The position numbers were made by a program, and so were the translations under genes. This document shows, in pieces, positions 8,444 through 55,845 of a stretch of DNA of 64,000 nt. This DNA comes from a virus, in the IMG/VR virus record IMGVR_UViG_3300045391_000822, positions 1 through 64,000 of that record; one strand, written 5' to 3'. Within the stretch, counting starts at the first letter, position 1, and every line of letters begins with the position of its first letter. The notes beneath the pieces were generated by a model. The model was not told where the DNA came from. It saw only the letters and a program-made list of their open reading frames with translations, and made no database searches.

Positions 8444-8983
8444 ATGATGGAAAAGCAGGACGCGATTGGCTTCATTGGAGCAACCCGAATCACAGGATTT
8501 ATTCCTGGTACTACTCAAGGCGCAACTGATCAATTCGATCAGCTTTTTGGAGCCGAGTTCGACGTCCCGTCGTGGGGATCCACTTCGTGTGTGACGAAGC
8601 ACGCTACCGTAAAGAAGCTTCCTGCAGTAGCAGAAGTCATTGCGTTGGAAATTGGTGGTAGCAAAATCAAGTGTGGTGGCGATCAGATGTTCGCCATTGT
8701 TAATTATCGGTCCTACGATGTCAGTGAAGGCCGTGTGTTCCTGGAAGGTCATTCCAATCTCGCTTTCAAGCGTGCGCGTGATCTACGCAGTGGGGATATG
8801 ATTTTCAGCCCCGGTGCTAAGGAACGTGACAAGATTTCAGGGCTGACGTTCTGCCGTATCAGTAAACACCGCATTCAGCAGTTGAAAGATCCGGTAGATA
8901 TGTTCACACTGTCGGTACAAAGGGGATCAACGTTCCTCTTGCCTGGCAACATCATAACAGCCTCGTGGAAGCAACATGACTGA
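8444..8983 (+). CDS. stand-alone degenerate Hint (intein-like) domain protein
   Basis: blocks resembling intein A (GFIGATRI), B (IKCGGDQMF), N4 (FKRARDLRSGDMI), F/G (VDMFTLSVQRGSTFLLPGNIITAS), but catalytic residues absent. Confidence 0.6.
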   Translation: MMEKQDAIGFIGATRITGFIPGTTQGATDQFDQLFGAEFDVPSWGSTSCVTKHATVKKLPAVAEVIALEIGGSKIKCGGDQMFAIVNYRSYDVSEGRVFLEGHSNLAFKRARDLRSGDMIFSPGAKERDKISGLTFCRISKHRIQQLKDPVDMFTLSVQRGSTFLLPGNIITASWKQHD

Positions 8984-10991
8984 CAAGGTGAAGAAAAAGA
9001 AGAGTGCATCACAAGATGGGTTTGTGATCGCCGAAGGACTTGACGGGGTTCGGCTAAACCCTACCATGTACCTAGGAGAACTAGGTAAGTACATGGCGTT
9101 GCGATGCACCAAAGAAGTGACCGACAACGCCTACGACGAACACATTGCTGGACGCAACAACTTGATCGAGGTCGTCATTAACTATGACGATGATCTGATC
9201 GTGATTGCGGACGGTGCAGGTGGTATTCCGACCGACTACAAGAAGCTGAAAGACGGAAAGAAAGAAACGATCATGACGGCGGCTTTCAAGCGGCTTCATG
9301 CAGGTGGCAAGTTCAACGACAAGGCGTACAAGACGTCAGCTGGTACGCACGGCGTTGGTGTTGCTGCGGTGAATGCGGTGTGTCAGAGCCTTCGTGTATG
9401 GTCCACGTACAAGGGCAAACTTGCGCACCAAGCATTTGCGAAGGGTGAGATCAAAACCAAAGGTAATGATCCGGTGCAGGTTAAGAGGGTAGACGAGGAC
9501 GTGATGTCCTTGCTATCTTCTAAGATAAAGGTCTACGGCACGATCGTTGCTTTCGTCCTCGATCAATCGGTAGTCAGCGAAAGTGTGCGCCGTGGGAAGG
9601 AGCTTCCGAAGAATTTCGTGAAGGCCGAACCGGACTACAAGGCATTGGGCGAACTGCTTCGTAACGTGGCATACCTGAACCCTGGTTTGGTCGTCAAGTT
9701 TTCTGCCGTGCGTAAGGGCAAACGCAAAGATTTCGAGTTCCAGAACAAGAAAGGTCTGGAATGGATTCCGAAGATCATGTGCGAGAATAGAGAGCTTAAC
9801 CAGCTCGGCAAACCGCTGGTCTTTAAGAACGATCACATCAGCTGCTCTATCACTTGGGCGGATCATCCGGACGTCGATAACTTCTTGTCGTTCGTGAACA
9901 CCAGCCCTACGATTGACGGCGGCTGGCACGTTACTGGTTTCATGAAAGCGTTGGCAGCAGCAATCAAGCCGTATGCCAAGGAAAAGAAGGCGAAGAAAGG
10001 CAAGAAGGCAGACACTGGTTACAGCTCTTCGGATTTGTTGATTGGTCTTACTGGAATGTTCGACTGGCGTATGCACGGCGCGCAGTTCACTTCTCAGGTT
10101 AAGGACAAGTTGGCATCACGTGTCGATTCTGAAGTTGCAGAAATCATGCAACCGGTCTTTGAGTCGTATTTCAAGAAACATTCCAAGGTAGCTAAGGCAA
10201 TCATCAAGCGTGCCCAGGTGATGAACAAGGGTCGTGAAGAGCTTGCTGCTGTGGTTAAGCAGATGGCAGACGTGAAGAAGGTAGCGAAGGGCAACACACT
10301 ACCGTCGGCACTAGCCACCGCACCTGGTGCTAAACCGCATGAGCGGGAGCTGTTCATTGTTGAAGGTGATTCTGCTGCGTTGACTGCTATCGATGCACGC
10401 GATTCCAACTTCCAAGAAGTATTGGGCGCAGGAGGTAAGCCGCTGAACGCGTTGAGTGCCTCGTTGGCTGCGGTTTTGAAGCACGAGGAAATCCAAAACA
10501 TGCTTATCAGTCTAGGCGCTGATATCAAGTCGTTGGATCCGAAAGCAGAGAAGCCACAATTCAGTGCTGAGGGCTTGCGTACTGCACACGTTATCTTCCT
10601 TGTTGACCCGGACCCGGACGGTGGCCATATCGCAGTGTTGTTCTTAGCTGCTATCTATCGTTTGATGCCTGATCTGTTGAAGCAGAAGCGTGTCTGGTGC
10701 GTTGACTCGCCATTGTATGCGGCTGTGAAAGACGGTCAGGTGTACGGTGGCAAGACGTTCGAGGCGTGTCGGAAGGCTGCTCCTAAGTCCATCAAGGATA
10801 AAGAGATCACGCGCATCAAAGGCTGGGGAGAAGTCGATGAGACCTACCTGGAACCGATTGCGTTCAACACCAAGGTTCGTAAACTGATCTGCATCAATCC
10901 GTTTGAGAATGCAGAACAGGAGAAGTTCTTTCGTGGTGTTGTTGCAGAAGATTCATCGCACCGTCGTGCGCTTCTTGGTCTGGAGGACTAA
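8976..10991 (+). CDS. gyrB: type IIA topoisomerase subunit B (GyrB/ParE-like)
   Basis: GLDGVRLNPTMYLG, EVTDNAYDE, LHAGGKF, AGTHGVG, VEGDSA, DPDPDGGHI, IKGWGE. Confidence 0.95.
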   Translation: MTDKVKKKKSASQDGFVIAEGLDGVRLNPTMYLGELGKYMALRCTKEVTDNAYDEHIAGRNNLIEVVINYDDDLIVIADGAGGIPTDYKKLKDGKKETIMTAAFKRLHAGGKFNDKAYKTSAGTHGVGVAAVNAVCQSLRVWSTYKGKLAHQAFAKGEIKTKGNDPVQVKRVDEDVMSLLSSKIKVYGTIVAFVLDQSVVSESVRRGKELPKNFVKAEPDYKALGELLRNVAYLNPGLVVKFSAVRKGKRKDFEFQNKKGLEWIPKIMCENRELNQLGKPLVFKNDHISCSITWADHPDVDNFLSFVNTSPTIDGGWHVTGFMKALAAAIKPYAKEKKAKKGKKADTGYSSSDLLIGLTGMFDWRMHGAQFTSQVKDKLASRVDSEVAEIMQPVFESYFKKHSKVAKAIIKRAQVMNKGREELAAVVKQMADVKKVAKGNTLPSALATAPGAKPHERELFIVEGDSAALTAIDARDSNFQEVLGAGGKPLNALSASLAAVLKHEEIQNMLISLGADIKSLDPKAEKPQFSAEGLRTAHVIFLVDPDPDGGHIAVLFLAAIYRLMPDLLKQKRVWCVDSPLYAAVKDGQVYGGKTFEACRKAAPKSIKDKEITRIKGWGEVDETYLEPIAFNTKVRKLICINPFENAEQEKFFRGVVAEDSSHRRALLGLED

Positions 10992-12548
10992 GTGAAGAAG
11001 GTCAAAAAAGCCAAGAAAGAAAAAGCAGGTAAGCGGATCCTGAAAGCCGAACCGTTACCGACGTTGAAGTCATCAGGTATTCGTGACCAAGGTATTGAAG
11101 CTTTTACTCGTCAAGCACTTTTCGAGTACGGCTCCTACGTTGTTGAGAGCCGTGCGGTACCTGACTACCGTGATGGGCTTAAGCCAGTACACCGATCGTT
11201 GATGTGGTCATTGGCAGGTTTGGGATTACGTCCCAATGCTGCGTATAAGAAAGCGGCGCGCACCGTCGGTGACACGATTGGTAAGTATCACCCTCACGGT
11301 GACCAAGCGTGCTACGGTGCTATGGTAACGATTGCAAATACCATGCCACCGGTTGTTGACGGCCAAGGTAACTGGGGTTCGCCAATCAACAATGCAGCTC
11401 ACATGCGGTACACTGAAGCACGCATGAGCAAGTTTGCACACTTGTTCATGTTGGATCCGCAGTACCTCAAGGTGGTTCCGAAGATACCGAATTATTCCGG
11501 TGACGACACGATTCCTCTCTACCTGCCGGCTCTGTTACCGTTTATTCTGTTCTTGGGAGGTCCTCCCGTTCCGGCTTACGGTGTAGCTGCAGGTAATCCG
11601 AGTTTTAGCTTGCCGTCGGTTGCCAAGGTTGTCGCAACAATGTTGCGCGGTCAAGAGATGGATTCGAAAGAGCTGGCTAAGATCATGCGCGTTGAACATG
11701 CGTACGGTTGCCAGTGTATATCTGACAAGAAAACTTTGCGAGAAGTTCTCAAGACAGGTCGTGGTAGTCTCCAATACCAACCAGAAGTTGTAGGATTGGA
11801 GAAGCAGAAGCAGATCAACATTCGATCGTTCAGTCCTGGCAAGTTGAGTTCTAAGAACTCCGCAGATAACACGCTGAACAAACTTGCTTTGCTGGACGGG
11901 GTGAAACGTGCATACTCCAAGCAAGGTAAGAAGTCGAAAGGCTCCGGACCTTACGGCGCTCTCTACGTTGTGGAGACCAAGGGCTTGAAGGGCGAAGCGT
12001 TCGAGAAGCTGGTCGAGAAAGTCCGCAAGGAAGTTACGTCCAGCGTAAGCGTGCGCTTAGGCGTAACGATTCGAAAGGCGAATGATCCGAACGAGTTTCG
12101 TTACTGGAACTTCGTACAGTTTTTGAAGAACTGGATCAAGTACCGGATAGCACTTGAGCTGCGACTCATCAAATCGTTGATCGTAGAAGTGGAACGTGAG
12201 CTGCACCTTAACGAGGTGTACCTGTTCGCCGTCCAGAACATGGAGAAGCTGCTGAAGGCCTTGCCTAAGGTGTTGGTGGCAGATGATCCAAACGAAGCAC
12301 TTGCGAAGATTTTGCAAATACCGGTTGAAGATGCTATACTTATCTTAGACCGAAAGGTTCGTCAACTGGCTAGGTTGGAAGAGGCCGGCTTGATTGCGAC
12401 CATCAAGAAGTTGAAAGCAGAATTAGCTGGACTCAAGAAGGATCAAAAGGAGCCGGGTGAGCGGGCTGCGCGGGTCAACGATGAGCGCCTGGCTACCTTT
12501 TTGAAAAACCCGGATGCGAATCGCTCCGGACTGCGCTTCACCAAGTAG
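10992..12548 (+). CDS. gyrA: type IIA topoisomerase subunit A (GyrA/ParC-like), no C-terminal pinwheel
   Basis: RAVPDYRDGLKPVHR, GKYHPHGD, DGQGNWGS, AAHMRYTEAR catalytic Tyr; 518 aa. Confidence 0.93.
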   Translation: MKKVKKAKKEKAGKRILKAEPLPTLKSSGIRDQGIEAFTRQALFEYGSYVVESRAVPDYRDGLKPVHRSLMWSLAGLGLRPNAAYKKAARTVGDTIGKYHPHGDQACYGAMVTIANTMPPVVDGQGNWGSPINNAAHMRYTEARMSKFAHLFMLDPQYLKVVPKIPNYSGDDTIPLYLPALLPFILFLGGPPVPAYGVAAGNPSFSLPSVAKVVATMLRGQEMDSKELAKIMRVEHAYGCQCISDKKTLREVLKTGRGSLQYQPEVVGLEKQKQINIRSFSPGKLSSKNSADNTLNKLALLDGVKRAYSKQGKKSKGSGPYGALYVVETKGLKGEAFEKLVEKVRKEVTSSVSVRLGVTIRKANDPNEFRYWNFVQFLKNWIKYRIALELRLIKSLIVEVERELHLNEVYLFAVQNMEKLLKALPKVLVADDPNEALAKILQIPVEDAILILDRKVRQLARLEEAGLIATIKKLKAELAGLKKDQKEPGERAARVNDERLATFLKNPDANRSGLRFTK

Positions 12549-23362: not shown

Positions 23363-23841
23363 TGAAAGCCTTGTTTCCTTTTACAGCCCATAATGTTAGC
23401 CATGATCCTTGGTTAAGCTCGTGGATTCAACTGCACCGTAGCATGTTGAATGAGAAACATGGACACCGTACGTTCACTGGTAATGCCGAACGCGATCGTG
23501 AAAAGCATTTTACTTTCTACGAAGCGTCAGCCGAGATAACATCGGAGGACACCGCAGTCATCTACTTCTACGGTATGGAAGACAGCGTCCTTGGTGGCCG
23601 AGGTCCACTTGAAGTGGAAAAGAAGGCCAAGGCCTTGAAGATATACCCCTCCTTCCAGAAATTGGTAGAACGCAGAAAGGTCTGTCTAGTGACAGAGAGT
23701 ATCCTTGCCCAGGATCGAGAGGACCGTATCCGGCGTCTCCAAACCCGCATAGAAGAGAAGCATTACGCTGCCTTCAATCATTTCGTCTCCGATGAGATGA
23801 GAGAAGCAATTCGTAATGAGCTTGCGTTGAGGATAGATTAG
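23362..23841 (+). CDS. hypothetical protein
   Basis: TAATG coupling. Confidence 0.65.
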   Translation: MKALFPFTAHNVSHDPWLSSWIQLHRSMLNEKHGHRTFTGNAERDREKHFTFYEASAEITSEDTAVIYFYGMEDSVLGGRGPLEVEKKAKALKIYPSFQKLVERRKVCLVTESILAQDREDRIRRLQTRIEEKHYAAFNHFVSDEMREAIRNELALRID

Positions 23842-23843
23842 CT

Positions 23844-24572
23844 ATGAGGATCAAATCCAAGTTCAAAGATTACTATGACTTCCTGGGTGGGGTTCATGGC
23901 GAGGATCCCAACATAAACTATGTTCGGTTACCTCATAAAGGTGATCTGTACGAACAACGGGATTACAAATCCGGTAAACTCGTGACTAAGATGGTGGAGC
24001 ACGATTTCTTTTCAGTACCTGTCATCGTCGGTCTGCCTCATTTCCAATTGAAGGACGAATGGTCTGATCGTGGTTGGAAAGTAGATACTATCTACGTATG
24101 TGGAATAGCGTACTGCATCATTGGATTCGAAGCCAAAACCGAAATGGTTCATCGCAATAAACAGTGGGTCTACGAGAAGAAAGGCGAAGACATACCGTTT
24201 ACTGTGTTTGATCTCGATCATCAGTTTGCGAAGGACTACGTCATCTGGGCTGAAAGATTGCTGCCACAGCAGCATCGGTCTATAGCAGAACTACACAAAG
24301 TATCGGGTATGCCGGTTTGCAGAACATCTGGTTCTTTGAGCTGGGGTAGCAAGACTACTCTGATCGATACTCGTGTGCCTGTTCTGTCTGACTATAATTT
24401 TGGAAAAATTCTTCCGCCGGAAAAGATTTGGCAGGACATTCAGTATTGGTTATCTAACCTTATCAATGAAAGTCCTGATATGGCTCCGCCTCCGCGTCCT
24501 CCTCAATCCAACGCAGAAAAATTGGACGCACACGGTTTCGATAAACGTTGGTCTTTCCGTCATAGGAAATGA
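23844..24572 (+). CDS. conserved phage hypothetical protein
   Basis: MRIKSKFKDYYD...HGFDKRWSFRHRK termini. Confidence 0.75.
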   Translation: MRIKSKFKDYYDFLGGVHGEDPNINYVRLPHKGDLYEQRDYKSGKLVTKMVEHDFFSVPVIVGLPHFQLKDEWSDRGWKVDTIYVCGIAYCIIGFEAKTEMVHRNKQWVYEKKGEDIPFTVFDLDHQFAKDYVIWAERLLPQQHRSIAELHKVSGMPVCRTSGSLSWGSKTTLIDTRVPVLSDYNFGKILPPEKIWQDIQYWLSNLINESPDMAPPPRPPQSNAEKLDAHGFDKRWSFRHRK

Positions 24573-24573
24573 T

Positions 24574-24846
24574 ATGAGCATGGAACTGCATGAAGCGATC
24601 AAGAGAAACGTAGAGTTCGCAGAGTTCTATCAAGACGAGCTGCGCGAGCTCGCAGAGCAGATTTCTTTCGTTAATAAGAAGGCTGGTGATCGCCTTCTCA
24701 CGATTGCAAAGGGTATCGTCGCGTCCGCTGACACCGTACAGATAGCATACAGAGAAGATCTTAGTGCTAATGTGCGACGTCAAGAACAGACGATGGGTAA
24801 TTGGTTGTCACTACTTATGAGTGACAAGGTTAAGTTCGTTGCCTAA
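24574..24846 (+). CDS. hypothetical protein
   Basis: ORF in operon. Confidence 0.6.
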   Translation: MSMELHEAIKRNVEFAEFYQDELRELAEQISFVNKKAGDRLLTIAKGIVASADTVQIAYREDLSANVRRQEQTMGNWLSLLMSDKVKFVA

Positions 24847-30806: not shown

Positions 30807-31183
30807 TGGCAGATGTCTCCATCTATGCGGCGGCAACAGGAGCCGCATTCTGTTCCACCTTTCTCCGTGGATTCCAGAATAAGAATGTTGCTGCGGGACT
30901 GAAGAGTTTGGCGTTTGGTACAGGTTACTTGATGAACCTGGCTGATATTGCTTTAGTGTCGATCGTAGCCCACGTCGGTAGCGGAGCTGACATGTTTGCG
31001 GCACTCCAGGTCGGTGCAGTCTCTGCTGTGGGTGCTGGTGCCGGATACGTAGCAAGTATGAAGGTGCACGACATCTTGCTGAAGGAGAAATACAAGGCAG
31101 CTGAGAAGGCCGCGAAACAACAATTGAAAACTCGTGTGCGCAAGTACGTTCGTCGCGAGATGGAGAATAGTCATGTTGACTGA
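30806..31183 (+). CDS. membrane protein (paralog of 46672-47007)
   Basis: three hydrophobic helices, basic tail. Confidence 0.7.
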   Translation: MADVSIYAAATGAAFCSTFLRGFQNKNVAAGLKSLAFGTGYLMNLADIALVSIVAHVGSGADMFAALQVGAVSAVGAGAGYVASMKVHDILLKEKYKAAEKAAKQQLKTRVRKYVRREMENSHVD

Positions 31184-33086
31184 TACCAAGTTCTTAGAAT
31201 CTCTTTCTTTGGACAAGAAGAAAAAGTTATACAAGGAGGCTCTCCCGGCTTACGAGGTGGGAAACCCCCTTATGTCGGATAAGGTGTTCGATGCGCTTGA
31301 AAACCGAATCAAGCAAGAAGACCCTAACTGGTCTGCGTTGGCCAAGACTGGCGTGAAGATGAAGAAGATGAAGACTCCCTTGTATGAGCCTGCGCCTTCT
31401 CTAGGAAAGGTCTACCCAGAAGCAGCTAACAAATGGTTGGCTAAGAGCCCAGAAGCTCTTGTTCTCGCTGATAAGTTGGATGGTAGTTCAATTCAACTTT
31501 TGGCCGATAAAGGCCGTATCACCAAGATGATCACCCGTGGTGACGGTACCACGGGTCAGGATATATCGTTTCTACTACCTTACGTTAAGAGGTTGCCGTC
31601 GTCCTTGATCCTCAAAACCCCTCGTGTTATTCGCTGTGAAGCGATTATGAAGCAAGAAGTCTTTGAGAAGAAGTACGCGGAAAAGTATGATAATCCACGC
31701 AACTTGGTTGCTGGCATTCTCAATCGAAGTCTTAAGAGCGGAGAGAAGCCGGATCCTGCGATTAAGGATATCGATATAGTTGTGCTGGGTGTTTACGGCA
31801 TGACCAATTATGTTGGTTTGAATTGGGCTGAAAAATCAGGATTTCTGGTTGTTGAACATGAGGTGGTTTTCAATAAAGAGCTCAACGCTTTGAAACTGGG
31901 CAAGCTCCTGAAGGGAAGACGTGCAAACTCTCTCTACGAAATGGATGGCCTGGTACTTTCCGATGCCCTTTACGAATTCGGTTATGATTCAGCCGAAAAA
32001 CCAAAATGGGCAATTGCTTTCAAAGAAAACCTTAGTGAGGCAGACGCGCCTAAGACTAAGGTGGTTGATGTCATCTGGCAGACAAGTCATAACGGCCGCC
32101 TAATACCTAAGGTGCAGGTAGAGCCTGTTCGACTTGACGGTGCCAAGATAACATATGCGACAGTCCATAACGCTGAGTGGATGACGGAACGAGGAATCGG
32201 ACCTGGTGCAGTAATCCAAATCGTCCGTAGTGGAGGAGTGATCCCCAAGATCACCAACGTGATCAAGAAAGCGAGCAAGCTCAAGCTACCTGACGTAGCC
32301 TATGAGAAGAAAGGTGTCCATTTCGTGGCAACTGAAGAATCGTTGGAGTCGGAAACGAAATCCATTTATCGATTCTTGCTGAAATGTGGTGTAGAATCCA
32401 TCGCGTTGAAGACAGTTACGAAGCTGTACGAAGCAGGTACGATGGAGTCATACCTGGACTACGTGATCATGTCCCAGCGTGGTGCTGATGAAGACTTCAT
32501 CTTCGAAATGAAGAAGGCAGGATTCACGTTGAACACTACCAAACGTATCTGTGCTGAACTGGCAGCAAAGCTCAGCGTTATCGATGTTAATGCAGCAATG
32601 ATAGGTACAGGTTCGTTTGCTGAAGGTATTGGAGAGCGTCGACTGGACTTGATTAACAAGACTATCAGTACTGGACAGTTGTTGGATATGTCGAAGGAGT
32701 TCTCGACTAAGCAATTTGCTGAGACACTATCACAGATCAACGGTATTGGTCCGGTGGTGGCAAAGCAGATTGTAGAAGGTATACGCTCATTCCGCCGCAT
32801 ACATCTGCCTGAGCTTCAAAAGCGGGTAGAAGTAACGATACCCCGTTCTGTGAAAAGAGCACCTCGTGCAAAGAAAGGTATATGGGCAGGTAAGTTTGGT
32901 ACCTGGACTGGATACCGTAATAAGGATGAAGAATCACAGTTCGTTGCAAAGGGCGGACAGATAGTGTCGTTCGGTAGCAAGACTAACGTCTTGTTCATGA
33001 AAGAAGGTGGCAAGGCCAGTAGCAAGATCACGACGGCCAAGGCCAAGGGCATTAACGTTACTACCTGGGAAGAATTCCGTGGATGA
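31173..33086 (+). CDS. ligA: NAD-dependent DNA ligase
   Basis: KLDG, TRGDGTTGQD, NPRNLVAG, YEMDGLV, PKWAIAFK, OB fold, HhH, BRCT-like end. Confidence 0.93.
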   Translation: MLTDTKFLESLSLDKKKKLYKEALPAYEVGNPLMSDKVFDALENRIKQEDPNWSALAKTGVKMKKMKTPLYEPAPSLGKVYPEAANKWLAKSPEALVLADKLDGSSIQLLADKGRITKMITRGDGTTGQDISFLLPYVKRLPSSLILKTPRVIRCEAIMKQEVFEKKYAEKYDNPRNLVAGILNRSLKSGEKPDPAIKDIDIVVLGVYGMTNYVGLNWAEKSGFLVVEHEVVFNKELNALKLGKLLKGRRANSLYEMDGLVLSDALYEFGYDSAEKPKWAIAFKENLSEADAPKTKVVDVIWQTSHNGRLIPKVQVEPVRLDGAKITYATVHNAEWMTERGIGPGAVIQIVRSGGVIPKITNVIKKASKLKLPDVAYEKKGVHFVATEESLESETKSIYRFLLKCGVESIALKTVTKLYEAGTMESYLDYVIMSQRGADEDFIFEMKKAGFTLNTTKRICAELAAKLSVIDVNAAMIGTGSFAEGIGERRLDLINKTISTGQLLDMSKEFSTKQFAETLSQINGIGPVVAKQIVEGIRSFRRIHLPELQKRVEVTIPRSVKRAPRAKKGIWAGKFGTWTGYRNKDEESQFVAKGGQIVSFGSKTNVLFMKEGGKASSKITTAKAKGINVTTWEEFRG

Positions 33087-34568: not shown

Positions 34569-36371
34569 ATGAACCAAGAACGTAAGCAAGCCCTGATATC
34601 TCGTATCAATGCCGGAGATCATGATCTTACCATGATGTACTGCGCGCCTCTCTTGAAAGACGTGTACAAGGTAGGTCACATCTTTCAATATCCGGACAAC
34701 ACGCAGTTGGTCTACTCGAATATGACACCACGTTCAGACAAACATCTACGTGGTCGCGTAAACGAACGGGTATACGATCAGAAATCTGTTTTCTTCGGCC
34801 TGCAAGGCTTCATAATCGAAGTCTTGATGGATCATTGGAACAAGACTTTCTTTCATCGTTCGTGGTCTGAAGTAGGTGACGTGTACAAGCGTTATGTAGA
34901 TGCTGTCCTGAATACAGATTTTCCGGTCGATCATATCAAGGCGCTTCACAAGCTGGGGTACCTTCCGATTGAAATCCGAGCCTTACCGGAAGGTACGTTG
35001 GTGCCCTTTAAGATTCCTGTGTATACGGTGCACAATACGAATCCTAACTTCGGGTGGGTAACCAATATGTTGGAAACGGTCATGAGCTCCGATACATGGA
35101 AGCCTGCAACGGTGGCCACGTTGGCCTATAACTTCCGACGGACACTTGATTACTGGGCGGAAAAGACTGGTGGCATATCAGCCCTGCTTCAATGGCAAGG
35201 CCATGACTTCAGTTTCCGTGGTATGTCCAATCATCAGGATGCTGCGGCTTGTGGTGTTGGCCATCTTTGCTCGTTTTCTGGAACCGATACGTTGCCGAGT
35301 ATTGCGCGTGCAGAATTCTTGTATGGTGCGGACGTAAACAAACAGATTGTCGGTGGCTCCGTTAATGCTACGGAACATTCCGTCATGTGTATCAATGGTG
35401 GTGATGGCGAGTTGGAGACATACAAACGTCTCTTGCAAAAATACCCCACAGGTATTCTCAGTATCGTCAGCGATAGCTTCGATCTGTGGCAAGTTATCAA
35501 CGAATGGGCGCCGGGACCGCTTCGTAGCCTCATTGAAGGCCGTCAAGGTAAGGTGGTGTTCCGCCCGGATAGCGGCAATCCTGCTGATATCCTTTGCGGT
35601 ACGGTTCGTGGAATACCAAATCATTCTCAGCAAGAACTGTTCTTTGCCTATGGAGAAGCTCTGGGTACCGAAACCTTGGTTAAGGAAGTCCGTGAGGAAT
35701 ATTTCTACGTTTATTGCGTAGAAGACGATACCTATTATAAGGTCGTCGTTAAAGATGATGCCGTGGCAGAATTCGGTATGTATTTTCTTATACAAGGAGT
35801 TTTTGATGCAGACATTACGCCCGAAATGCGTGGCGTTGTAGACTGCCTGGGTTACCATTTTGGTACGGTCACCAATGAAAAGGGCTACAATGACCTTGCA
35901 GCTTGTGTTGGTACTATCTACGGTGACAGTATCAATCCTCGTCTCTTCGATGAAATCCTGAAGCGACTGGCTGACAAAGGATATAGCTCCAACTGCGTTG
36001 TCGTCGGTATCGGTAGCTACAGCTATCAGTACATGACCCGTGATACTTTGGGCTCGGCTGTTAAAGCCACCTTTGGTGTTGTTGGTGGTGTCGGTCGAGG
36101 GATCCTTAAAGATCCGAAGACAGGTGACGGTATAAAGAAAAGCGCCTATGGGCTCCTGACTGTGGCCGATATGGCAGGTGGAGGGCAAGAGCCTCTACTG
36201 GAATTGATGGACGGCGAAGTAGATATCCCTGCCGAAGCTGTCTTCGAAGGTAACTTCGACAGTGGAGAGTTGAAACCTGTCTTCCGCAATGGGCATCTAC
36301 TGAAGTTCCAGACCTTGTCCGAGATTCGTATGCGCCTGCATGGTTGGGATGATAGCATTCCTTCTCTGTAG
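34569..36371 (+). CDS. NAMPT-like phosphoribosyltransferase (candidate Namat)
   Basis: DVYKVGH, HDFSFRG, GTDT, ATEHSVM, SIVSDS, RPDSG, IYGDSI, KDPKTGDGIKKSA. Confidence 0.9.
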   Translation: MNQERKQALISRINAGDHDLTMMYCAPLLKDVYKVGHIFQYPDNTQLVYSNMTPRSDKHLRGRVNERVYDQKSVFFGLQGFIIEVLMDHWNKTFFHRSWSEVGDVYKRYVDAVLNTDFPVDHIKALHKLGYLPIEIRALPEGTLVPFKIPVYTVHNTNPNFGWVTNMLETVMSSDTWKPATVATLAYNFRRTLDYWAEKTGGISALLQWQGHDFSFRGMSNHQDAAACGVGHLCSFSGTDTLPSIARAEFLYGADVNKQIVGGSVNATEHSVMCINGGDGELETYKRLLQKYPTGILSIVSDSFDLWQVINEWAPGPLRSLIEGRQGKVVFRPDSGNPADILCGTVRGIPNHSQQELFFAYGEALGTETLVKEVREEYFYVYCVEDDTYYKVVVKDDAVAEFGMYFLIQGVFDADITPEMRGVVDCLGYHFGTVTNEKGYNDLAACVGTIYGDSINPRLFDEILKRLADKGYSSNCVVVGIGSYSYQYMTRDTLGSAVKATFGVVGGVGRGILKDPKTGDGIKKSAYGLLTVADMAGGGQEPLLELMDGEVDIPAEAVFEGNFDSGELKPVFRNGHLLKFQTLSEIRMRLHGWDDSIPSL

Positions 36372-41848: not shown

Positions 41849-43519
41849 ATGTTGATAACCGCTTCCATCCTCGCCAATCTGCTTGAAGTTCTGTACGTTC
41901 TTGTCATCGATTGGAAGGAGTCCGGTGAAGGTAAAGCTCAAAGCGATACAGCTTCCGAGCTTAAACAGTTGGCTCCACGTGCTCTACGTAATTGGAAGCG
42001 TGCCCTTCCTGCACTAGAGCCTGCGCTACAATCCGCGATCTCTGGACAGAACAAGGTTGAATCCTTGGTAAGCCTAGGGCAAGAACTGAAGGATCAGTTT
42101 CCGCTCTTCCGTAAGAATCACGACTTCACTGCACAAGAACTTGAAGTAATGAATGCGCTTGGTGCGTATATGCGTACCGATAGCGAAAATGCACTGAAGA
42201 AGTTGGTCAAGCTCGCTGGTATAACCCAATCGGTTTGGGTTGCCCAGAAACTTCGCCCGGATGTAGGATCACAAGGACAATCGGAAGGCGCACTCCGTAA
42301 GCTGGTCAAGAAAATGGCTGGTCGTGATGACGTGTGCCTTACCTTGGAGGAATCCAAGGTTGCTAGGGAAACATATCCTGACGAATACAAGGAATACCTG
42401 CAGTTGAGTCGCGCATTTAACCAAGTGTGGAAAGACTCCTTGGTTAACTTTGTTCGCCAATCAAAGAAACGCTTGGTGCCCTATCAAGACGTGTTGGACT
42501 TCATGAAGTCCAACGGTATTCATAACAAGCTTCCTTTGGGCTTCACTGGTCTTATTGACGATCAAGGCAAACTGTACACACGAGACGGCAAAGCTGTTGA
42601 TGGTGTACCAAATGCAATGACGTCGCCTACCGTCAAGATGAATACCAAGTATGGTCCTGAATCACCATGGGTGTTCATGGCGGTTAAGGCTGATGGTTCA
42701 GCTCCAACGTATTTCTACACTGCGGATTTCAAAAAGAGCCAAGCCAAATCGAAGTTCACCAAGGTAAAGGATTTGACTGCACGTATTCCTCAGATGCGTG
42801 CCAAGTGGTTCATGAATGTGAAGAAGTTCAACCAAGCCAGCGTTACCTGCGTGGCATCGGTAATCCTGGAGCTCCTTTACCAGTATAGTGCCCGTGTTGG
42901 AACCACTGGCAATTCAACCTACGGTTGTGGAACGTTGTTGGTTAAACATCTAAAGAAAGAACCAACTGGTGACTACACGATTCGTTATCTAGGAAAGGAT
43001 TCGGTGCCAACCAAACATGTGGTGCGTGCATCAGACCCTGAGCAACGTTTCATTGTTGCTGCCTTAGATCAGTTGGTGGCGAATAAAGGTCCGAAAGAAA
43101 AGGTGTTCACTTCGGTGTCCCAAACTGGACGCCCGAAGTTGGTTGGACCCGTGGCTGTGAACAAGTTGTTCAAGGAATTGGCAGGTACTGCGGAAATTAC
43201 GGTACACAAACTCCGTACGTACCGTGGTACAAAGTTGTTCCAAGAACTTTCTGAGGAAATCATTCCGCGCCTTCAACCAAAGGTTGAGAAATTGGCTGCA
43301 AAGAATCCACGTCTTGCAGAGAAGCTGGTGTTGGATGAATTTCGGTCTATTGCTGAGAAAGTTGGGAAGTTGCTGAATCACGTCCGTCGTGGAGCAGCAG
43401 GTTCAAAAGTTACTGGCGTAACGGCGATCGCCAATTACATCGATCCTCAATGTTCGATAACCTTTTTCCGCAACTTAGATACTCGCCCTCCCAAGATGTT
43501 GGAAAAGTTTGATGTGTGA
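41849..43519 (+). CDS. type IB DNA topoisomerase with long N-terminal extension
   Basis: ARVG, YG.GTL...H, YLGKD, TVHKLRTYRGT, LLNH, NYIDP catalytic pentad. Confidence 0.85.
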   Translation: MLITASILANLLEVLYVLVIDWKESGEGKAQSDTASELKQLAPRALRNWKRALPALEPALQSAISGQNKVESLVSLGQELKDQFPLFRKNHDFTAQELEVMNALGAYMRTDSENALKKLVKLAGITQSVWVAQKLRPDVGSQGQSEGALRKLVKKMAGRDDVCLTLEESKVARETYPDEYKEYLQLSRAFNQVWKDSLVNFVRQSKKRLVPYQDVLDFMKSNGIHNKLPLGFTGLIDDQGKLYTRDGKAVDGVPNAMTSPTVKMNTKYGPESPWVFMAVKADGSAPTYFYTADFKKSQAKSKFTKVKDLTARIPQMRAKWFMNVKKFNQASVTCVASVILELLYQYSARVGTTGNSTYGCGTLLVKHLKKEPTGDYTIRYLGKDSVPTKHVVRASDPEQRFIVAALDQLVANKGPKEKVFTSVSQTGRPKLVGPVAVNKLFKELAGTAEITVHKLRTYRGTKLFQELSEEIIPRLQPKVEKLAAKNPRLAEKLVLDEFRSIAEKVGKLLNHVRRGAAGSKVTGVTAIANYIDPQCSITFFRNLDTRPPKMLEKFDV

Positions 43520-50662: not shown

Positions 50663-50694
50663 AAGCGTTTTCAAGTTCCGTAAATAGTTGATAC

Positions 50695-50870
50695 GAGATG
50701 TCTTAGGGGTAACGGGAAGGACTAAGGTTGAGAATAAGAGTTAGTTCGGTGCACCGATTAACTTGATTTCGACTAAGGTGGCTTCAGCAGATAGTACCCA
50801 TCATAAGGTTGCGCGCCTTGGATACTGTAGTTTCAGGATCGTTCCCTGGTCGGTGCCCCTAAGACATTTC
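50695..50870 (+). ncRNA. orphan structured RNA A
   Basis: 17-bp terminal stem, T-arm-like hairpin tcagg-ATCGTTC-cctgg, three TAAGGT repeats, upstream CGTAAATA. Confidence 0.55.
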
Positions 50871-50875
50871 AAAGT

Positions 50876-51074
50876 ATTCTCAGAGCAGCAATGCAAAGCG
50901 AAATCAGTAAATGCCTGGTGAGTGCGCACAATCCAGAACATCGAAACAAAGTAGCTGGTGCAAGATACTAACCCGCGTAGTTGTTTGACGCGAGTACGGC
51001 ATTCTTATTGGATGTGACAGTACCGGTCTACGTTGGAGGCTCCTGGATCGTCCCCAGGTTGCTGCTCTGAGAAT
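50876..51074 (+). ncRNA. orphan structured RNA B
   Basis: perfect 16-bp terminal stem stacked on T-arm-like cctgg-ATCGTCC-ccagg. Confidence 0.55.
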
Positions 51075-51080
51075 TGCTTC

Positions 51081-51164
51081 CATAGTTGGTAGCGTTGGAC
51101 GTCGATATCCAAATAATCCTGTTGGATCCGGATCACAGGTTGGATACCAGCGTTACCAACTATG
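51081..51164 (+). other. long irregular hairpin upstream of tmRNA
   Basis: 18-bp basal stem plus tatccaa/ttggata and cctgt/acagg. Confidence 0.5.
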
Positions 51165-51560
51165 GTAGTAGGTGACCTAAAGGTTACGAGAGTGAGAAAT
51201 GAATGGCGGTAAGACGCGGGTTCGATTCCCGCCGGCTCCACCATACACGCCTTGTCTTCATGAAGCACGCCTTAACAGGACGTGTATGATGGGGCTGACA
51301 TGGATTCGATTATCGTGCTGAAGTGGACGCAACTACCCGGGCAAGCGGAGCCCGCTGACCTAGGTCAGGAATACCAAGCAAAGAAGATAAATGCTAACGA
51401 CAGCATCTTTGAGCAGCGCCTCGCGGCCTGATCACATAGTCCCTAGTAAACTGGATAGTTGATAACGATACGATTCCAGGGAGCTAGGTGGGGCCACCGT
51501 GTACCTAGTACACCTGTGTCAGAAACCTACCTTGTCAGATAGGAAGAGTGGCCCACCTCC
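51163..51560 (+). ncRNA. ssrA: circularly permuted (two-piece) tmRNA; outer ends approximate
   Basis: T arm + CGGCTCCACCA ends at 51243, GGGGCTGACATGGATTCGA starts at 51291, G3-U pair, tag ANDSIFEQRLAA* 51393-51431. Confidence 0.88.
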
Positions 51561-51574
51561 AGGTTAAGATAATC

Positions 51575-52192
51575 ATGGCTCTAAGAACGATAACGTTTGA
51601 TGATGAAGACCTAGATTCTGTCTCTAGGACAATTAATATATTGAACAGTTTCCGTGGAACGTTAAGGGCCAGGTCCGGTACGGCTACCGTGACGAGCAGG
51701 TGTAACGCTCAATACAACGCCGCAAAAGCTATCATAGAAACCAGAACTGCGTACCTGTATGGTAATTATGTACAGCGCAGATCCAGGGGTTGCTATGTGT
51801 ACATGCACTGCGAGGCCGATAGGAAACTTCATCGTGGCAAAAGTGGCGTAATCAATTTCCTTTTGGATTGCGGTGTTGAGTACATGCCCTTCTATGTAGG
51901 CAAGGGAGTAGGCTCGAGAGATATCTGCCTAGACAGAAACGAAACACACCGCAAAGTACGTCAACGACTCCAGACGTTTGGCAAAGATGTTGTAGTCAAA
52001 CGAGTTGCAGAAGATCTTTCCGAGAAAGATGCGTTAGCACTGGAATCACGATGGCTAGATGTGTTAGGACTCCGAGTGAACGGAGGAATGTTGGTAAATC
52101 TTGATGAAGGTGTGGAAACAGCTAGACGACGTGTTCTGTACAAGGAGCACCTGGTCGTTTTATCAGAATTTTACCAACATTCGGTAAAATAA
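51575..52192 (+). CDS. free-standing GIY-YIG (LEM-3-like) endonuclease
   Basis: YVYMH...PFYVGKG..R...LSEKDALALE...LVNLDEG. Confidence 0.75.
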   Translation: MALRTITFDDEDLDSVSRTINILNSFRGTLRARSGTATVTSRCNAQYNAAKAIIETRTAYLYGNYVQRRSRGCYVYMHCEADRKLHRGKSGVINFLLDCGVEYMPFYVGKGVGSRDICLDRNETHRKVRQRLQTFGKDVVVKRVAEDLSEKDALALESRWLDVLGLRVNGGMLVNLDEGVETARRRVLYKEHLVVLSEFYQHSVK

Positions 52193-52371: not shown

Positions 52372-52444
52372 CTCGCGTGGTCAGGTAGGTTATGTGATGG
52401 ATTGCAATCCATCTAGACTGGTTCGATTCCAGTACGCGAGTCCA
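52372..52444 (+). tRNA. tRNA-Cys(GCA), 6-nt anticodon loop
   Basis: atgga-TTGCAA-tccat, U73, CCA. Confidence 0.75.
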
Positions 52445-53157: not shown

Positions 53158-53296
53158 GCAGTGGCGTAGCTGTGCAGTTACTTCGACTGTTAATCGAGTG
53201 GTCGCAGGTTCGAGTCCTGTCACTGCGTAAGTGGTGTAGCTCAGTTGGATAGAGCACTTGGCCGAAAGGCCGTTCCTGCAGGCGAGGGTTCCCTGC
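53158..53296 (+). ncRNA. Y RNA-like 2 (YrlA type)
   Basis: CAGTGGCGTAG..GTTACTTC, CTGTTAA loop, T arm, closed acceptor stem, D arm, GTTCCCTG. Confidence 0.85.
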
Positions 53297-53331: not shown

Positions 53332-53456
53332 GCGGTGGTGAAGTATACGATTCCATCTCAACCAGTGGGTCGCGGGTTCGAGTCCCGTCTATCCGTCAGG
53401 ATAGTAGATCAGTTGGTAGATCAACCGGCAATTAATCGTACACGATTGTTCCCCGC
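53332..53456 (+). ncRNA. Y RNA-like 3 (YrlA type)
   Basis: CGGTGGTGAAG..., T arm, ctatcc-gtca-ggatag, D arm, TGTTCCCCG. Confidence 0.8.
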
Positions 53457-53487
53457 ACACATCATAGCAGTCTCAGAGTTTTAGTTT

Positions 53488-54189: not shown

Positions 54190-54372
54190 TACCCTGTCTC
54201 TGTTTCTGCCTGACGCAGAGATACGCGCTGTCAAGTTCTTGTAGACCCGGTGGGGCCGGCACCTATGAGGATTTGACAGCGCATCTTTTTGGGGTTGGTG
54301 AGGAAGTTGAACGTCTACGAACTACCGAAGTTCGTTCTTTCATCTGTCACTCTTCACTACAAAGGAGCCAAA

Positions 54373-55845
54373 ATGGCCCACCTCAACCGTAAAGCTGATC
54401 CGCATCGTAAAGCGGTAACCAAAGAATCTGTCCTTAACAATGCTCCGTTCGAGCAACTTTCCCGTGCAGTGATGACCTGCCTGCTGTGGGAAGGTACTGA
54501 AGACGAACGCATATCCAAGCTCGTTCCCAGCGTTCCGCTGGAAGATGTAGCGTACCTGGCACGGACGGCACATGAAGATATGAAGCTGCGCCATGTGCCG
54601 CTACTCCTGGCTCGGGAAATGGCGCGCCATCCAGGTCGTGTGGAAAATCCTTCCGTCATCGCGAACACGATTGAAGCGGTTATCAACCGTCCTGATTCAT
54701 TGACGGAATTCCTGGCTATCTATTGGAAGGATGGACGTCAGCCATTGTCAGGCCAGGTAAAGAAAGGTCTGGCTCGCGCATTTGCAAAATTCAGCGAGTA
54801 TCAACTAGCGAAGTACAATCGTGATCACGAAGTGAAGTTGCGCGACGTGCTCTTCCTTTCACATGCAAAGCCGAAAGACGTTGAACCTGGTTCTGCTTTG
54901 TGGAATAAGGATGCGCGTACCAACTACAAACCAAACAAGGGGTTTGTACGCGAGTTCACGAAAGGCGAACTCCTGTATGGTCGAGTAGTTCACGATCAGT
55001 TGGTTTCCCCAGAAACGTGGGAAAACAAGCTGTCACGCGGCAAAGACAAGAAAGAAACGTTTGCTGATTTGATGAAGAGTGGTAAGTTGGGAGGCCTGGC
55101 TTTCCTGCGTAACCTGCGCAATATCAAAGAAGCCGGCATATCTAAGGATGTGGTCAATAGCTATGCAGATGTAGCCAAGGTTGATGGAATCCTGCCTTTC
55201 CAGTTCATGTCTGCGCAACGTGCAGTTCCTGAATGGGAAGATGCCATCGAGAAGATGATGCTCCGCGCAGTGGAGAACATTCCCAAACTACCAGGACGCA
55301 CGGTGTTGGTTGTGGACTTGTCGGGTTCCATGAGAGCGCAGATGGCAGATAAGTCGGGATTGGAACGTACTGATGTAGCGGCAGCATTCAGTGTTCTGTG
55401 CCGTGAACTGTGCGAGAACATTGCAGTGTTTGCTACGGCAGGTAACGACCATAGCCGGAAGCACGCTACGATAACTGTTCCGCCGCGTCGTGGATTTGCT
55501 TTGGCAGAAAAGCTGCGTGTTGGTGGAGATCAAGAAATCTATCGTCGCATTGGCCAAGGCGGTATTTTCCTTAAGCAGGTTACGGAGTTCGTTTCTGGCA
55601 CCCTTGGTGATCAAGATGTCGAACGTTGTATCGTCATCACTGACGAACAGGATACGGATATCGACGGAACTTCTGCGAAAGCAAAGTTGATCGGTAAACA
55701 CAACTACATCGTCAACATCGCGACGAACGCTCGAGGTATCGGTTACGGACGTTTCACCCATATCAATGGATGGTCCGAAGCTGTACTGAAGTTCATCGCA
55801 GCCTATGAAGCGAACGAAGAAACGATGCACAAAGGTGCAGCTTAA
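54373..55845 (+). CDS. rsr: Ro60/Rsr TROVE-vWA RNA-binding protein
   Basis: EQLSRAVMTCLLWE, LRHVP, FSEYQLAKY, KLRDVLFLSHAKP, TWE, AFLRNLRN, VVDLSGSM (MIDAS), ITDEQ, GWSE; AAGGAG RBS. Confidence 0.92.
   Translation: MAHLNRKADPHRKAVTKESVLNNAPFEQLSRAVMTCLLWEGTEDERISKLVPSVPLEDVAYLARTAHEDMKLRHVPLLLAREMARHPGRVENPSVIANTIEAVINRPDSLTEFLAIYWKDGRQPLSGQVKKGLARAFAKFSEYQLAKYNRDHEVKLRDVLFLSHAKPKDVEPGSALWNKDARTNYKPNKGFVREFTKGELLYGRVVHDQLVSPETWENKLSRGKDKKETFADLMKSGKLGGLAFLRNLRNIKEAGISKDVVNSYADVAKVDGILPFQFMSAQRAVPEWEDAIEKMMLRAVENIPKLPGRTVLVVDLSGSMRAQMADKSGLERTDVAAAFSVLCRELCENIAVFATAGNDHSRKHATITVPPRRGFALAEKLRVGGDQEIYRRIGQGGIFLKQVTEFVSGTLGDQDVERCIVITDEQDTDIDGTSAKAKLIGKHNYIVNIATNARGIGYGRFTHINGWSEAVLKFIAAYEANEETMHKGAA

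Follow-up and report, generated by a model that had tools for sequence, protein, structure and literature searches.

A circularly permuted, probably functional tmRNA gene within the tRNA array of a phiRSL1-related jumbo phage

Our analysis revealed a circularly permuted tmRNA gene of the two-piece type in a phage, and we consider it likely that this is a functional phage-encoded ssrA gene whose processing and ribosome-rescue activity depend on the host. The gene lies in the window, that is, the first 64 kb of the 155,598-bp linear IMG/VR virus record IMGVR_UViG_3300045391_000822. ARAGORN reported "tmRNA* permuted" at 51151-51522 with the tag ANDSIFEQRLAA and placed the resume consensus at gataaatgctaacgacag, while the Rfam model tmRNA_permuted (RF04321) matched 51182-51431 over model positions 1-213 with 83.5 bits (E 1.6e-14), against a curated cut-off of 47 bits. 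Both programs, which the initial annotation had named as checks, and the phage structural genes of the record agree with its claim of a circularly permuted two-piece-type tmRNA in a phage. The features of the locus are listed in Table 1.

Table 1. Features of the permuted tmRNA locus in the window.
Feature	Position	Strand	Basis or remark
Whole conserved tmRNA gene block (precursor)	51075..51557	+	L110 BLAST boundaries; z = -5.06
Components of the block, in order	51075..51557	+	5' hairpin, acceptor piece, spacer, coding piece
5' structured hairpin, arms 51077-51098 / 51147-51168	51077..51168	+	Inverted repeat I1; 22-nt arms, 86% complementary
P2-distal 3' strand GGTAGT, partner ACTACC 51332-51337	51164..51169	+	Read from sequence
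Small hairpin of the acceptor piece, GTGACC-TAAA-GGTTAC	51172..51187	+	MFE fold
P2a 3' strand CGGTAA, partner TTATCG 51310-51315	51207..51212	+	Covariation, 49 sequences
T-arm, 5-bp stem GCGGG/CCCGC, canonical T-loop TTCGATT	51216..51232	+	Sequence and family pairing
3' acceptor strand CGGCTCC, discriminator A, encoded CCA	51233..51243	+	Pairs with 51291-51297
Intervening spacer, 47 nt, predicted to be excised, ends TGAT	51244..51290	+	Terminal arms fold back
5' acceptor strand GGGGCTG and D-loop analogue ACATGGATTCGA	51291..51309	+	5' end of the coding piece
PK1	51338..51379	+	Stem-loop and pseudoknot helix; covariation of second helix
Tag reading frame, GCT resume codon, ANDSIFEQRLAA, TGA stop	51393..51431	+	ARAGORN
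Post-tag stem-loop, helix-5-like, with conserved GATAACGA	51442..51488	+	MFE
Large 3' hairpin domain, closed by GGTGGGGCCAC / GTGGCCCACC	51487..51557	+	RNAalifold; 3' end of the coding piece

Inspection of the sequence bore out the arrangement initially described. The 3' half (GCGGG-TTCGATT-CCCGC-CGGCTCC-ACCA), whose encoded CCA ends the acceptor piece at 51243, lies ahead of the 5' half, GGGGCTGACATGGATTCGA, which begins at 51291. Between them is the 47-nt spacer with complementary ends that fold back (inverted repeat 51235-51255 / 51275-51295), and the halves form seven acceptor pairs with G3:U70, as had been claimed; the discriminator is A. The identity elements of the tRNA-like part are all intact, including the 7-bp acceptor stem, G3:U70, A73-CCA, the T-loop and the GG..TTCGA D-loop analogue. 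The resume codon GCT follows ATAAAT, also as annotated; it is preceded by PK1, and the frame closes with TGA at 51429-51431. P2a and P2-distal join the two pieces over a long range. Several non-canonical pairs were flagged in the generic P2 of the RF04321 alignment, and we propose P2-distal as an alternative to it on the basis of few sequences; in PHB04, L110 and L099 GGTAGT is accompanied by ACTACT, a C-G to U-G change. The fold z-score of the block (51074-51558, 485 nt; Table 1) was matched by none of 100 dinucleotide shuffles.

The PK1 comprises the stem-loop CGGGC-AAGCGGA-GCCCG (51338-51354) and a second helix between the loop bases GCGG (51345-51348) and CC..GC (51374-51375, 51378-51379). 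Its pseudoknot loop holds an extra hairpin, CTGACC-TA-GGTCAG (51355-51368), at a site where L110, L111 and L093 carry unrelated hairpins. The small hairpin of the acceptor piece has equivalents of different sequence in L110, PHB04, L095 and L093, and GATAAYGA is kept after the tag in L110, L111, L113 and G406. For the 3' domain, RNAalifold with five relatives gave a closing stem of 10 pairs in which 1 of 50 cells was broken, with two-sided changes at four pairs in two to three sequences. Only this 3' hairpin was retained from the coding-piece run; the 5' pairs predicted on the coding piece alone were rejected as spurious, their true partners lying on the acceptor piece.

The hairpin at the 5' end of the block is a possible extension of the acceptor piece. 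It is kept in L110 with pair-keeping changes, namely AG/GA swaps opposite UU and an inner helix of UAUCCAA:UUGGAUA versus UGUUCA:UGAGCA. The strand 51455-51467, part of the post-tag stem-loop in the tail of the coding piece, also forms a 13-nt inverted repeat (I3, 92% complementary) with 51151-51163, and could pair with it in trans to close the two-piece molecule. We demoted this trans helix, which retains 9 of 12 pairs in L110 by eye, to an alternative, because the competing cis hairpin keeps its pairing there.

The record is approximately 66% complete according to CheckV; among its genes are those for a portal, a baseplate wedge, a head-tail connector and a large helicase. Portal identity is 52-57% with phiRSL1 (Ralstonia), BcepSaruman, BcepSauron and BCSR5 (Burkholderia) and Motura (Achromobacter). 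Judged from this identity together with the structural genes, the source is therefore a phiRSL1-related jumbo phage, a Burkholderiales phage type, and its host is most likely a betaproteobacterium. The G+C content across the window is 45-51%, which is low for betaproteobacterial hosts. The tmRNA gene stands within a co-oriented array of about 20 tRNA genes at 45.5-59 kb. Neither a sigma-70-like promoter nor an intrinsic terminator was found on the + strand between 50200 and 52400, consistent with co-transcription with the tRNAs. The initial annotation had noted that smpB was absent from the window, and our search extended this to the whole record, where no SmpB (PF01668) was found at E <= 1 in the approximately 66% that the record represents. 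RtcB was likewise sought in the whole record and was not found. When the locus and the 40-60 kb region were compared with INPHARED phages by near and distant BLAST, only tRNA- or T-arm-sized matches were obtained.

Synteny with 47.7-53.7 kb of the window was seen in L110, a metagenome contig of 3.9 kb, which is 75-83% identical over the aligned segments and carries genes in the order tRNA-Leu, Leu, Ser, His, permuted tmRNA, Cys, Ser, Asn and Glu. BLAST aligned 51075-51245 at 82.8% and 51287-51557 at 75.7% identity. The gene could be bounded at 51075-51557, because the flanking stretches 50691-51074 and 51558-52192 have no counterpart in L110. The L110 tmRNA has a spacer of 95 nt and the tag ANDSQFDQRLAA; compared with the window, its tag differs by three synonymous and two amino-acid changes (a conservative E/D and an I/Q), and its first residues (AND) and last residues (RLAA) are unchanged. 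On this comparison, the tag is under constraint at the peptide level.

Two stretches flanking the tmRNA gene are specific to the window in this comparison. Upstream is a 384-nt non-coding stretch (50691-51074), missing in L110, and directly after the gene is P0001, a 205-aa ORF (51575-52192) that is missing at the equivalent position of L110 and for which sequence searches of Pfam, PHROG and PDB gave no match. Both stretches appear to have been inserted into the RNA-gene array. P0001 was considered as a stand-in for SmpB, and we treated it as an insertion rather than a partner because it is not at the same position in L110. Further downstream, 52372-52444 was called "tRNA-???" by ARAGORN and scored 27.9 bits on the Rfam tRNA model, just below the cut-off; it is the positional counterpart of the tRNA-Cys(GCA) of L110.

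The permuted arrangement is common to a wider family. A generic DNA pattern for it recovered 42 IMG/VR contigs and 18 bacterial (betaproteobacterial) genomes, in all of which, except for one viral locus (L038), ARAGORN made a permuted call; a PK1-motif pattern added further, closer relatives. The alignment A2 consists of 49 distinct permuted tmRNA genes from viral and bacterial contigs, onto which the structure of the window tmRNA was mapped. Paired cells amounted to 90.1% in A2 versus 76.1% in shuffles, and the covariation score was 0.377 versus 0.127, a value reached by none of 500 shuffles; with slid partners it was at most 0.089. P2a showed two-sided changes at all six pairs with 98.6% of cells paired, the T-arm was 100% paired with covariation at four of its five pairs, and the acceptor pair G3:U70 was invariant (49/49 sequences). 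The GGGG, GG and TTCGA of the 5' acceptor strand and D-loop analogue were invariant or nearly so. Covariation extends to the second PK1 helix, which is GAU:AUC in the main family and GG:CC in the window tmRNA; pair 291/322 is AU in 19 sequences and GC in 10. The terminal fold-back of the spacer is also a family-wide property, with 8.3 consecutive pairs versus 3.4 in shuffles; TGAT closes 31 of 48 spacers, placing a U at -1 before G1. The PK1 and resume-codon context of the window tmRNA fits the family consensus ATAAATGC.AACGA.

These results bear on the origin of the gene, for which the initial annotation had offered either capture from a host with a permuted tmRNA or an independent permutation. 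The order, the spacer design and homologous P2 and PK1 are shared by the 42 IMG/VR contigs, the 18 betaproteobacterial genomes, metagenome contigs and PHB04, and this wide sharing of gene order and spacer design makes an independent permutation unlikely. As for the capture proposal, no bacterial donor was found among 401 sampled Pseudomonadota genomes, of which the unpublished G388 is a very small part. BLAST of the 410-nt gene against these genomes matched only query positions ~49-114 (T-arm and 3' acceptor), and a DNA pattern for the exact tag retrieved nothing from IMG/VR. The nearest relatives of the window tmRNA were all phage or metagenome sequences; in the tree it groups with L110, beside a group of L111, L106 and PHB04-like sequences.

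The three lineage-specific Rfam models gave scores below their cut-offs: beta_tmRNA (RF01850) 38.3 bits (cut-off 84) over model positions 70-173 only, alpha_tmRNA (RF01849) 37.7 bits (cut-off 50) over positions 40-268, and cyano_tmRNA (RF01851) 31.6 bits (cut-off 70) over positions 56-120. As controls, beta_tmRNA gave 165.7 bits for Gallionellaceae G001, 158.6 for the viral locus L002, 102.8 for Herbaspirillum G002 and 60.8 for PHB04, and alpha_tmRNA gave 66.8 bits for CcrPW. Because it falls below all three cut-offs, the window tmRNA appears to sit in a divergent branch, met here in phage and metagenome contigs only. Three members of the PK1-motif subfamily (G406, L113 and L114) have non-canonical T-loops, and for this reason some members of the branch may be decaying.

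These data suggest the following model. The tmRNA would probably be co-transcribed with the neighbouring tRNAs, and the 47-nt spacer would be removed by host tRNA-processing enzymes: RNase P would cut before G51291, with a leader U at -1 and the fold-back stem stacked on the acceptor stem, and 3' trimming would halt at the encoded CCA at 51243. Processing would yield a coding piece (51291-51557, about 267 nt) and an acceptor piece ending at that CCA, the latter about 90 nt long without and about 165 nt long with the 5' hairpin; the acceptor stem, P2a and P2-distal would hold the two together. Host AlaRS would then charge the RNA via G3:U70 and A73. Assisted by SmpB and EF-Tu of the host, the RNA would enter stalled ribosomes, add (A)ANDSIFEQRLAA and free them, the tag serving as a degron of the ...LAA type. 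Since no SmpB is encoded in the record, the tmRNA most likely works with that of the host, and its fit to a given host's SmpB is not assured because of the scores below the alpha, beta and cyano cut-offs. We infer that the phage would gain ribosome-rescue capacity while host mRNA and tRNA are damaged or out-competed. The gene is real, intact and probably functional.

The four closest isolated phages (phiRSL1, BcepSaruman, Motura and BCSR5) lack a permuted tmRNA, so the gene is dispensable for a phage of the phiRSL1 type. It is accessory and appears to move; a tmRNA of the same subfamily occurs in the 187-kb contig G406, whose portal is just 37% identical to that of the window phage. We tentatively put forward a broader reading, which has perhaps a modest chance of being right, in which the RNAs of the window, L110 and G406, and loosely the PHB04 group, would form a structurally distinct branch of phage-carried permuted tmRNAs that moves between unrelated jumbo phages and imposes its own degron in hosts with a one-piece tmRNA. 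The branch would be marked by sub-threshold scores on the three lineage models, by hairpin expansion in the PK1 loop and by a cis 5' hairpin replacing the trans closure of the coding-piece tail to the acceptor piece. Its spacer and flanks would be landing sites for mobile modules, such as an endonuclease ORF (G406), tRNA-like elements (L110, L113 and L106) and an ORF after the gene (window).

It is unlikely that the RNA, if made, acts chiefly by competing with or re-programming the trans-translation of the host, titrating host SmpB or AlaRS or swapping the host tag, instead of simply providing more rescue capacity. No phage SmpB was found, so that the RNA would draw on the host pool, and for a tmRNA of mycobacteriophage DS6A that lacks a CDS, inhibition of the endogenous tmRNA of E. 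coli has been reported (PMC11915505). Moreover, betaproteobacteria with a related permuted tmRNA keep a standard one, and the permuted gene is thus not simply a housekeeping copy. However, the window tmRNA has an intact tag frame of the standard AND...LAA design, whose peptide is conserved, as well as a PK1 and resume context that match the family consensus, neither of which a pure decoy would need.

We consider it very improbable that the gene is a hitch-hiking or decaying remnant, acquired through tRNA-gene pickup or a mobile element and now neutral or non-functional. Its absence from the four closest isolates, the insertions at the locus and the signs of decay in relatives (the T-loop and spacer endonuclease ORF of G406, the lost P2a partner of L113) would fit such a history. 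In contrast, every helix and identity element of the window copy is intact, the differences from L110 are concentrated at pair-keeping or synonymous positions, and the fold z-score is strong. An assembly or recombination junction as the source of the permuted order, the refuting case named initially, is effectively refuted: although the record is a metagenome assembly, the same order recurs in the independently assembled, syntenic L110, in the 42 IMG/VR contigs, in the isolates PHB04 and CcrPW and in the 18 bacterial genomes, and the halves are exactly complementary across the spacer.

A functional phage-borne permuted tmRNA would not be new in kind, because permuted tmRNAs of phages have been published (PMC9004378). 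Two-piece tmRNAs were described in alphaproteobacteria (Caulobacter) by Keiler et al. (2000) and in betaproteobacteria by Sharkady and Williams (2004), both as cited in PMC11915505. Buchholz et al. (2022) reported 133 unique tmRNAs in 402 isolate phages, 53 of them two-piece, and the entries marked "Permuted" in their Table S1 include PHB04 and, among Caulobacter phages, CcrPW, CcrSC and CcrBL9 (PMC9004378); the 2025 tmRNA database holds 79 unique phage tmRNA sequences (PMC11915505). We confirmed unannotated permuted tmRNA genes in the genomes of PHB04 and CcrPW. Permuted tmRNAs of phages are thus a documented class, of which the gene described here is a divergent further example.

The closest named relative is Bordetella phage vB_BbrM_PHB04 (NC_047861, tmRNA at ~46.05-46.43 kb). 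Its gene is likewise phage-borne, adjoins tRNA genes and falls in the same tree group, and it shares the order of the halves, the GGTAGT:ACTAC(C/T) P2-distal, the fold-back spacer, a tag starting with AND, an identical PK1 loop (GGCAAGCGGAGCC ... CCAAGCAAA) and, in the acceptor piece, a hairpin with GAGA..GTGA..GAATGG after it. In contrast, identity is 51-68% over the compared pieces, the PHB04 spacer is 72 nt, its tag is ANDDYIRAAA, its PK1 loop has no hairpin, its 3' domain is different and it scores higher on beta_tmRNA (60.8 vs 38.3 bits); furthermore, PHB04 is a 94-kb myovirus, not a jumbo phage. With the betaproteobacterial family (RF01850) the window tmRNA shares the permuted order, the T-arm/acceptor/P2a layout, an A-rich stretch (...AAGCAAA..) after PK1 and the resume context ATAAAYGC.AACGA, and L002 and G001, clear beta members, align with it in A2. 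It aligns to the beta model in the tRNA-like part alone, however, and differs in the middle section of P2, the PK1 insertion, the 5' hairpin and the 3' domain.

The alphaproteobacterial family (RF01849) and its phage copies (CcrPW; Melnitz and pelagiphages, PMC9004378) have the same two-piece design, and the alpha spacer is thought to be excised by tRNA-processing enzymes. These phage copies are likewise present without a phage SmpB being reported, and the CcrPW tag also ends in ...EQRLAA. In contrast, the PK1 region differs and the alpha_tmRNA score is 37.7 bits versus 66.8 for CcrPW. Melnitz carries a glutamine riboswitch, whereas Rfam reported none at the window tmRNA region. One-piece phage tmRNAs, e.g. 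of cluster C mycobacteriophages (PMC11915505), also occur alongside a large tRNA set but have the standard, non-permuted order. Our study adds a well-bounded, structurally intact two-piece tmRNA for phiRSL1-like jumbo phages, of which the four closest isolates have none, and reveals a branch that is missed by the lineage-specific models and detected by the generic permuted model only.

The RNA-gene array of the window contains further elements. Two matches to YrlA (RF02553), at 53336-53458 (+; 50.3 bits, E 2e-9) and 53197-53258 (+; 44.8 bits), are both below the cut-off though their E-values are good, and downstream of them lies a gene for a 518-aa TROVE-domain (Ro/Rsr-like) protein (54289-55845, +). 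Together they look like a phage Ro/Y-RNA module within the tRNA array; a search for related loci based on the TROVE protein found no relatives. The tmRNA, the adjacent tRNA array and such a module fit large phages with their own translation-maintenance kit. The early region (8976-12548, 31134-33086, 34569-36371 and 41849-43519) carries genes for GyrB-like and GyrA/ParC-like subunits of topoisomerase II, for an NAD-dependent DNA ligase and for an enzyme of the NAMPT/NAPRTase family; a further protein has the catalytic core of a eukaryotic-type topoisomerase IB (PF01028, 70.5 bits).

In G406 (IMGVR_UViG_3300020577_002562, locus L101), the permuted tmRNA lies on the reverse strand (~rc 1440-2330) with the tag ANDAQFDQALAA, a T-loop of GGCAGTA in place of TTCGATT and an RtcB-like gene upstream. 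Within its 498-nt spacer, an ORF for a DUF559 protein of 167 aa (Vsr-like endonuclease) begins 7 nt past the CCA; the ORF ends within the 5' acceptor/D region. The spacers of L110, L113, L106 and L093 are 86-111 nt long with T-arm-like hairpins inside (GTTGG-TTCAATT-CCAAC in L110), and that of L113, which has lost its P2a partner, is a nearly complete tRNA-like cloverleaf with a long closing stem.

Standard and permuted tmRNAs occur together in Gallionellaceae G001, Herbaspirillum (G002), Noviherbaspirillum (G003) and Duganella (G005), the standard copies scoring 213-226 bits on RF00023 and the permuted copies 112-139 bits on RF04321. On contig C56 of G001, the two genes (23746-24115 and 24396-24718) are about 300 nt apart. 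The permuted tags of Herbaspirillum and Duganella end in ...GT (e.g. ...AYGT) rather than ...LAA. Finally, a permuted tmRNA of the same PK1 subfamily occurs in L093, a viral contig of 56 kb, and in L107, a metagenome contig of 470 kb; its tag is unusually long (36 residues, ANAFASSS...GGFAVAA), and ARAGORN mistook the gene for a standard tmRNA and gave it another tag.
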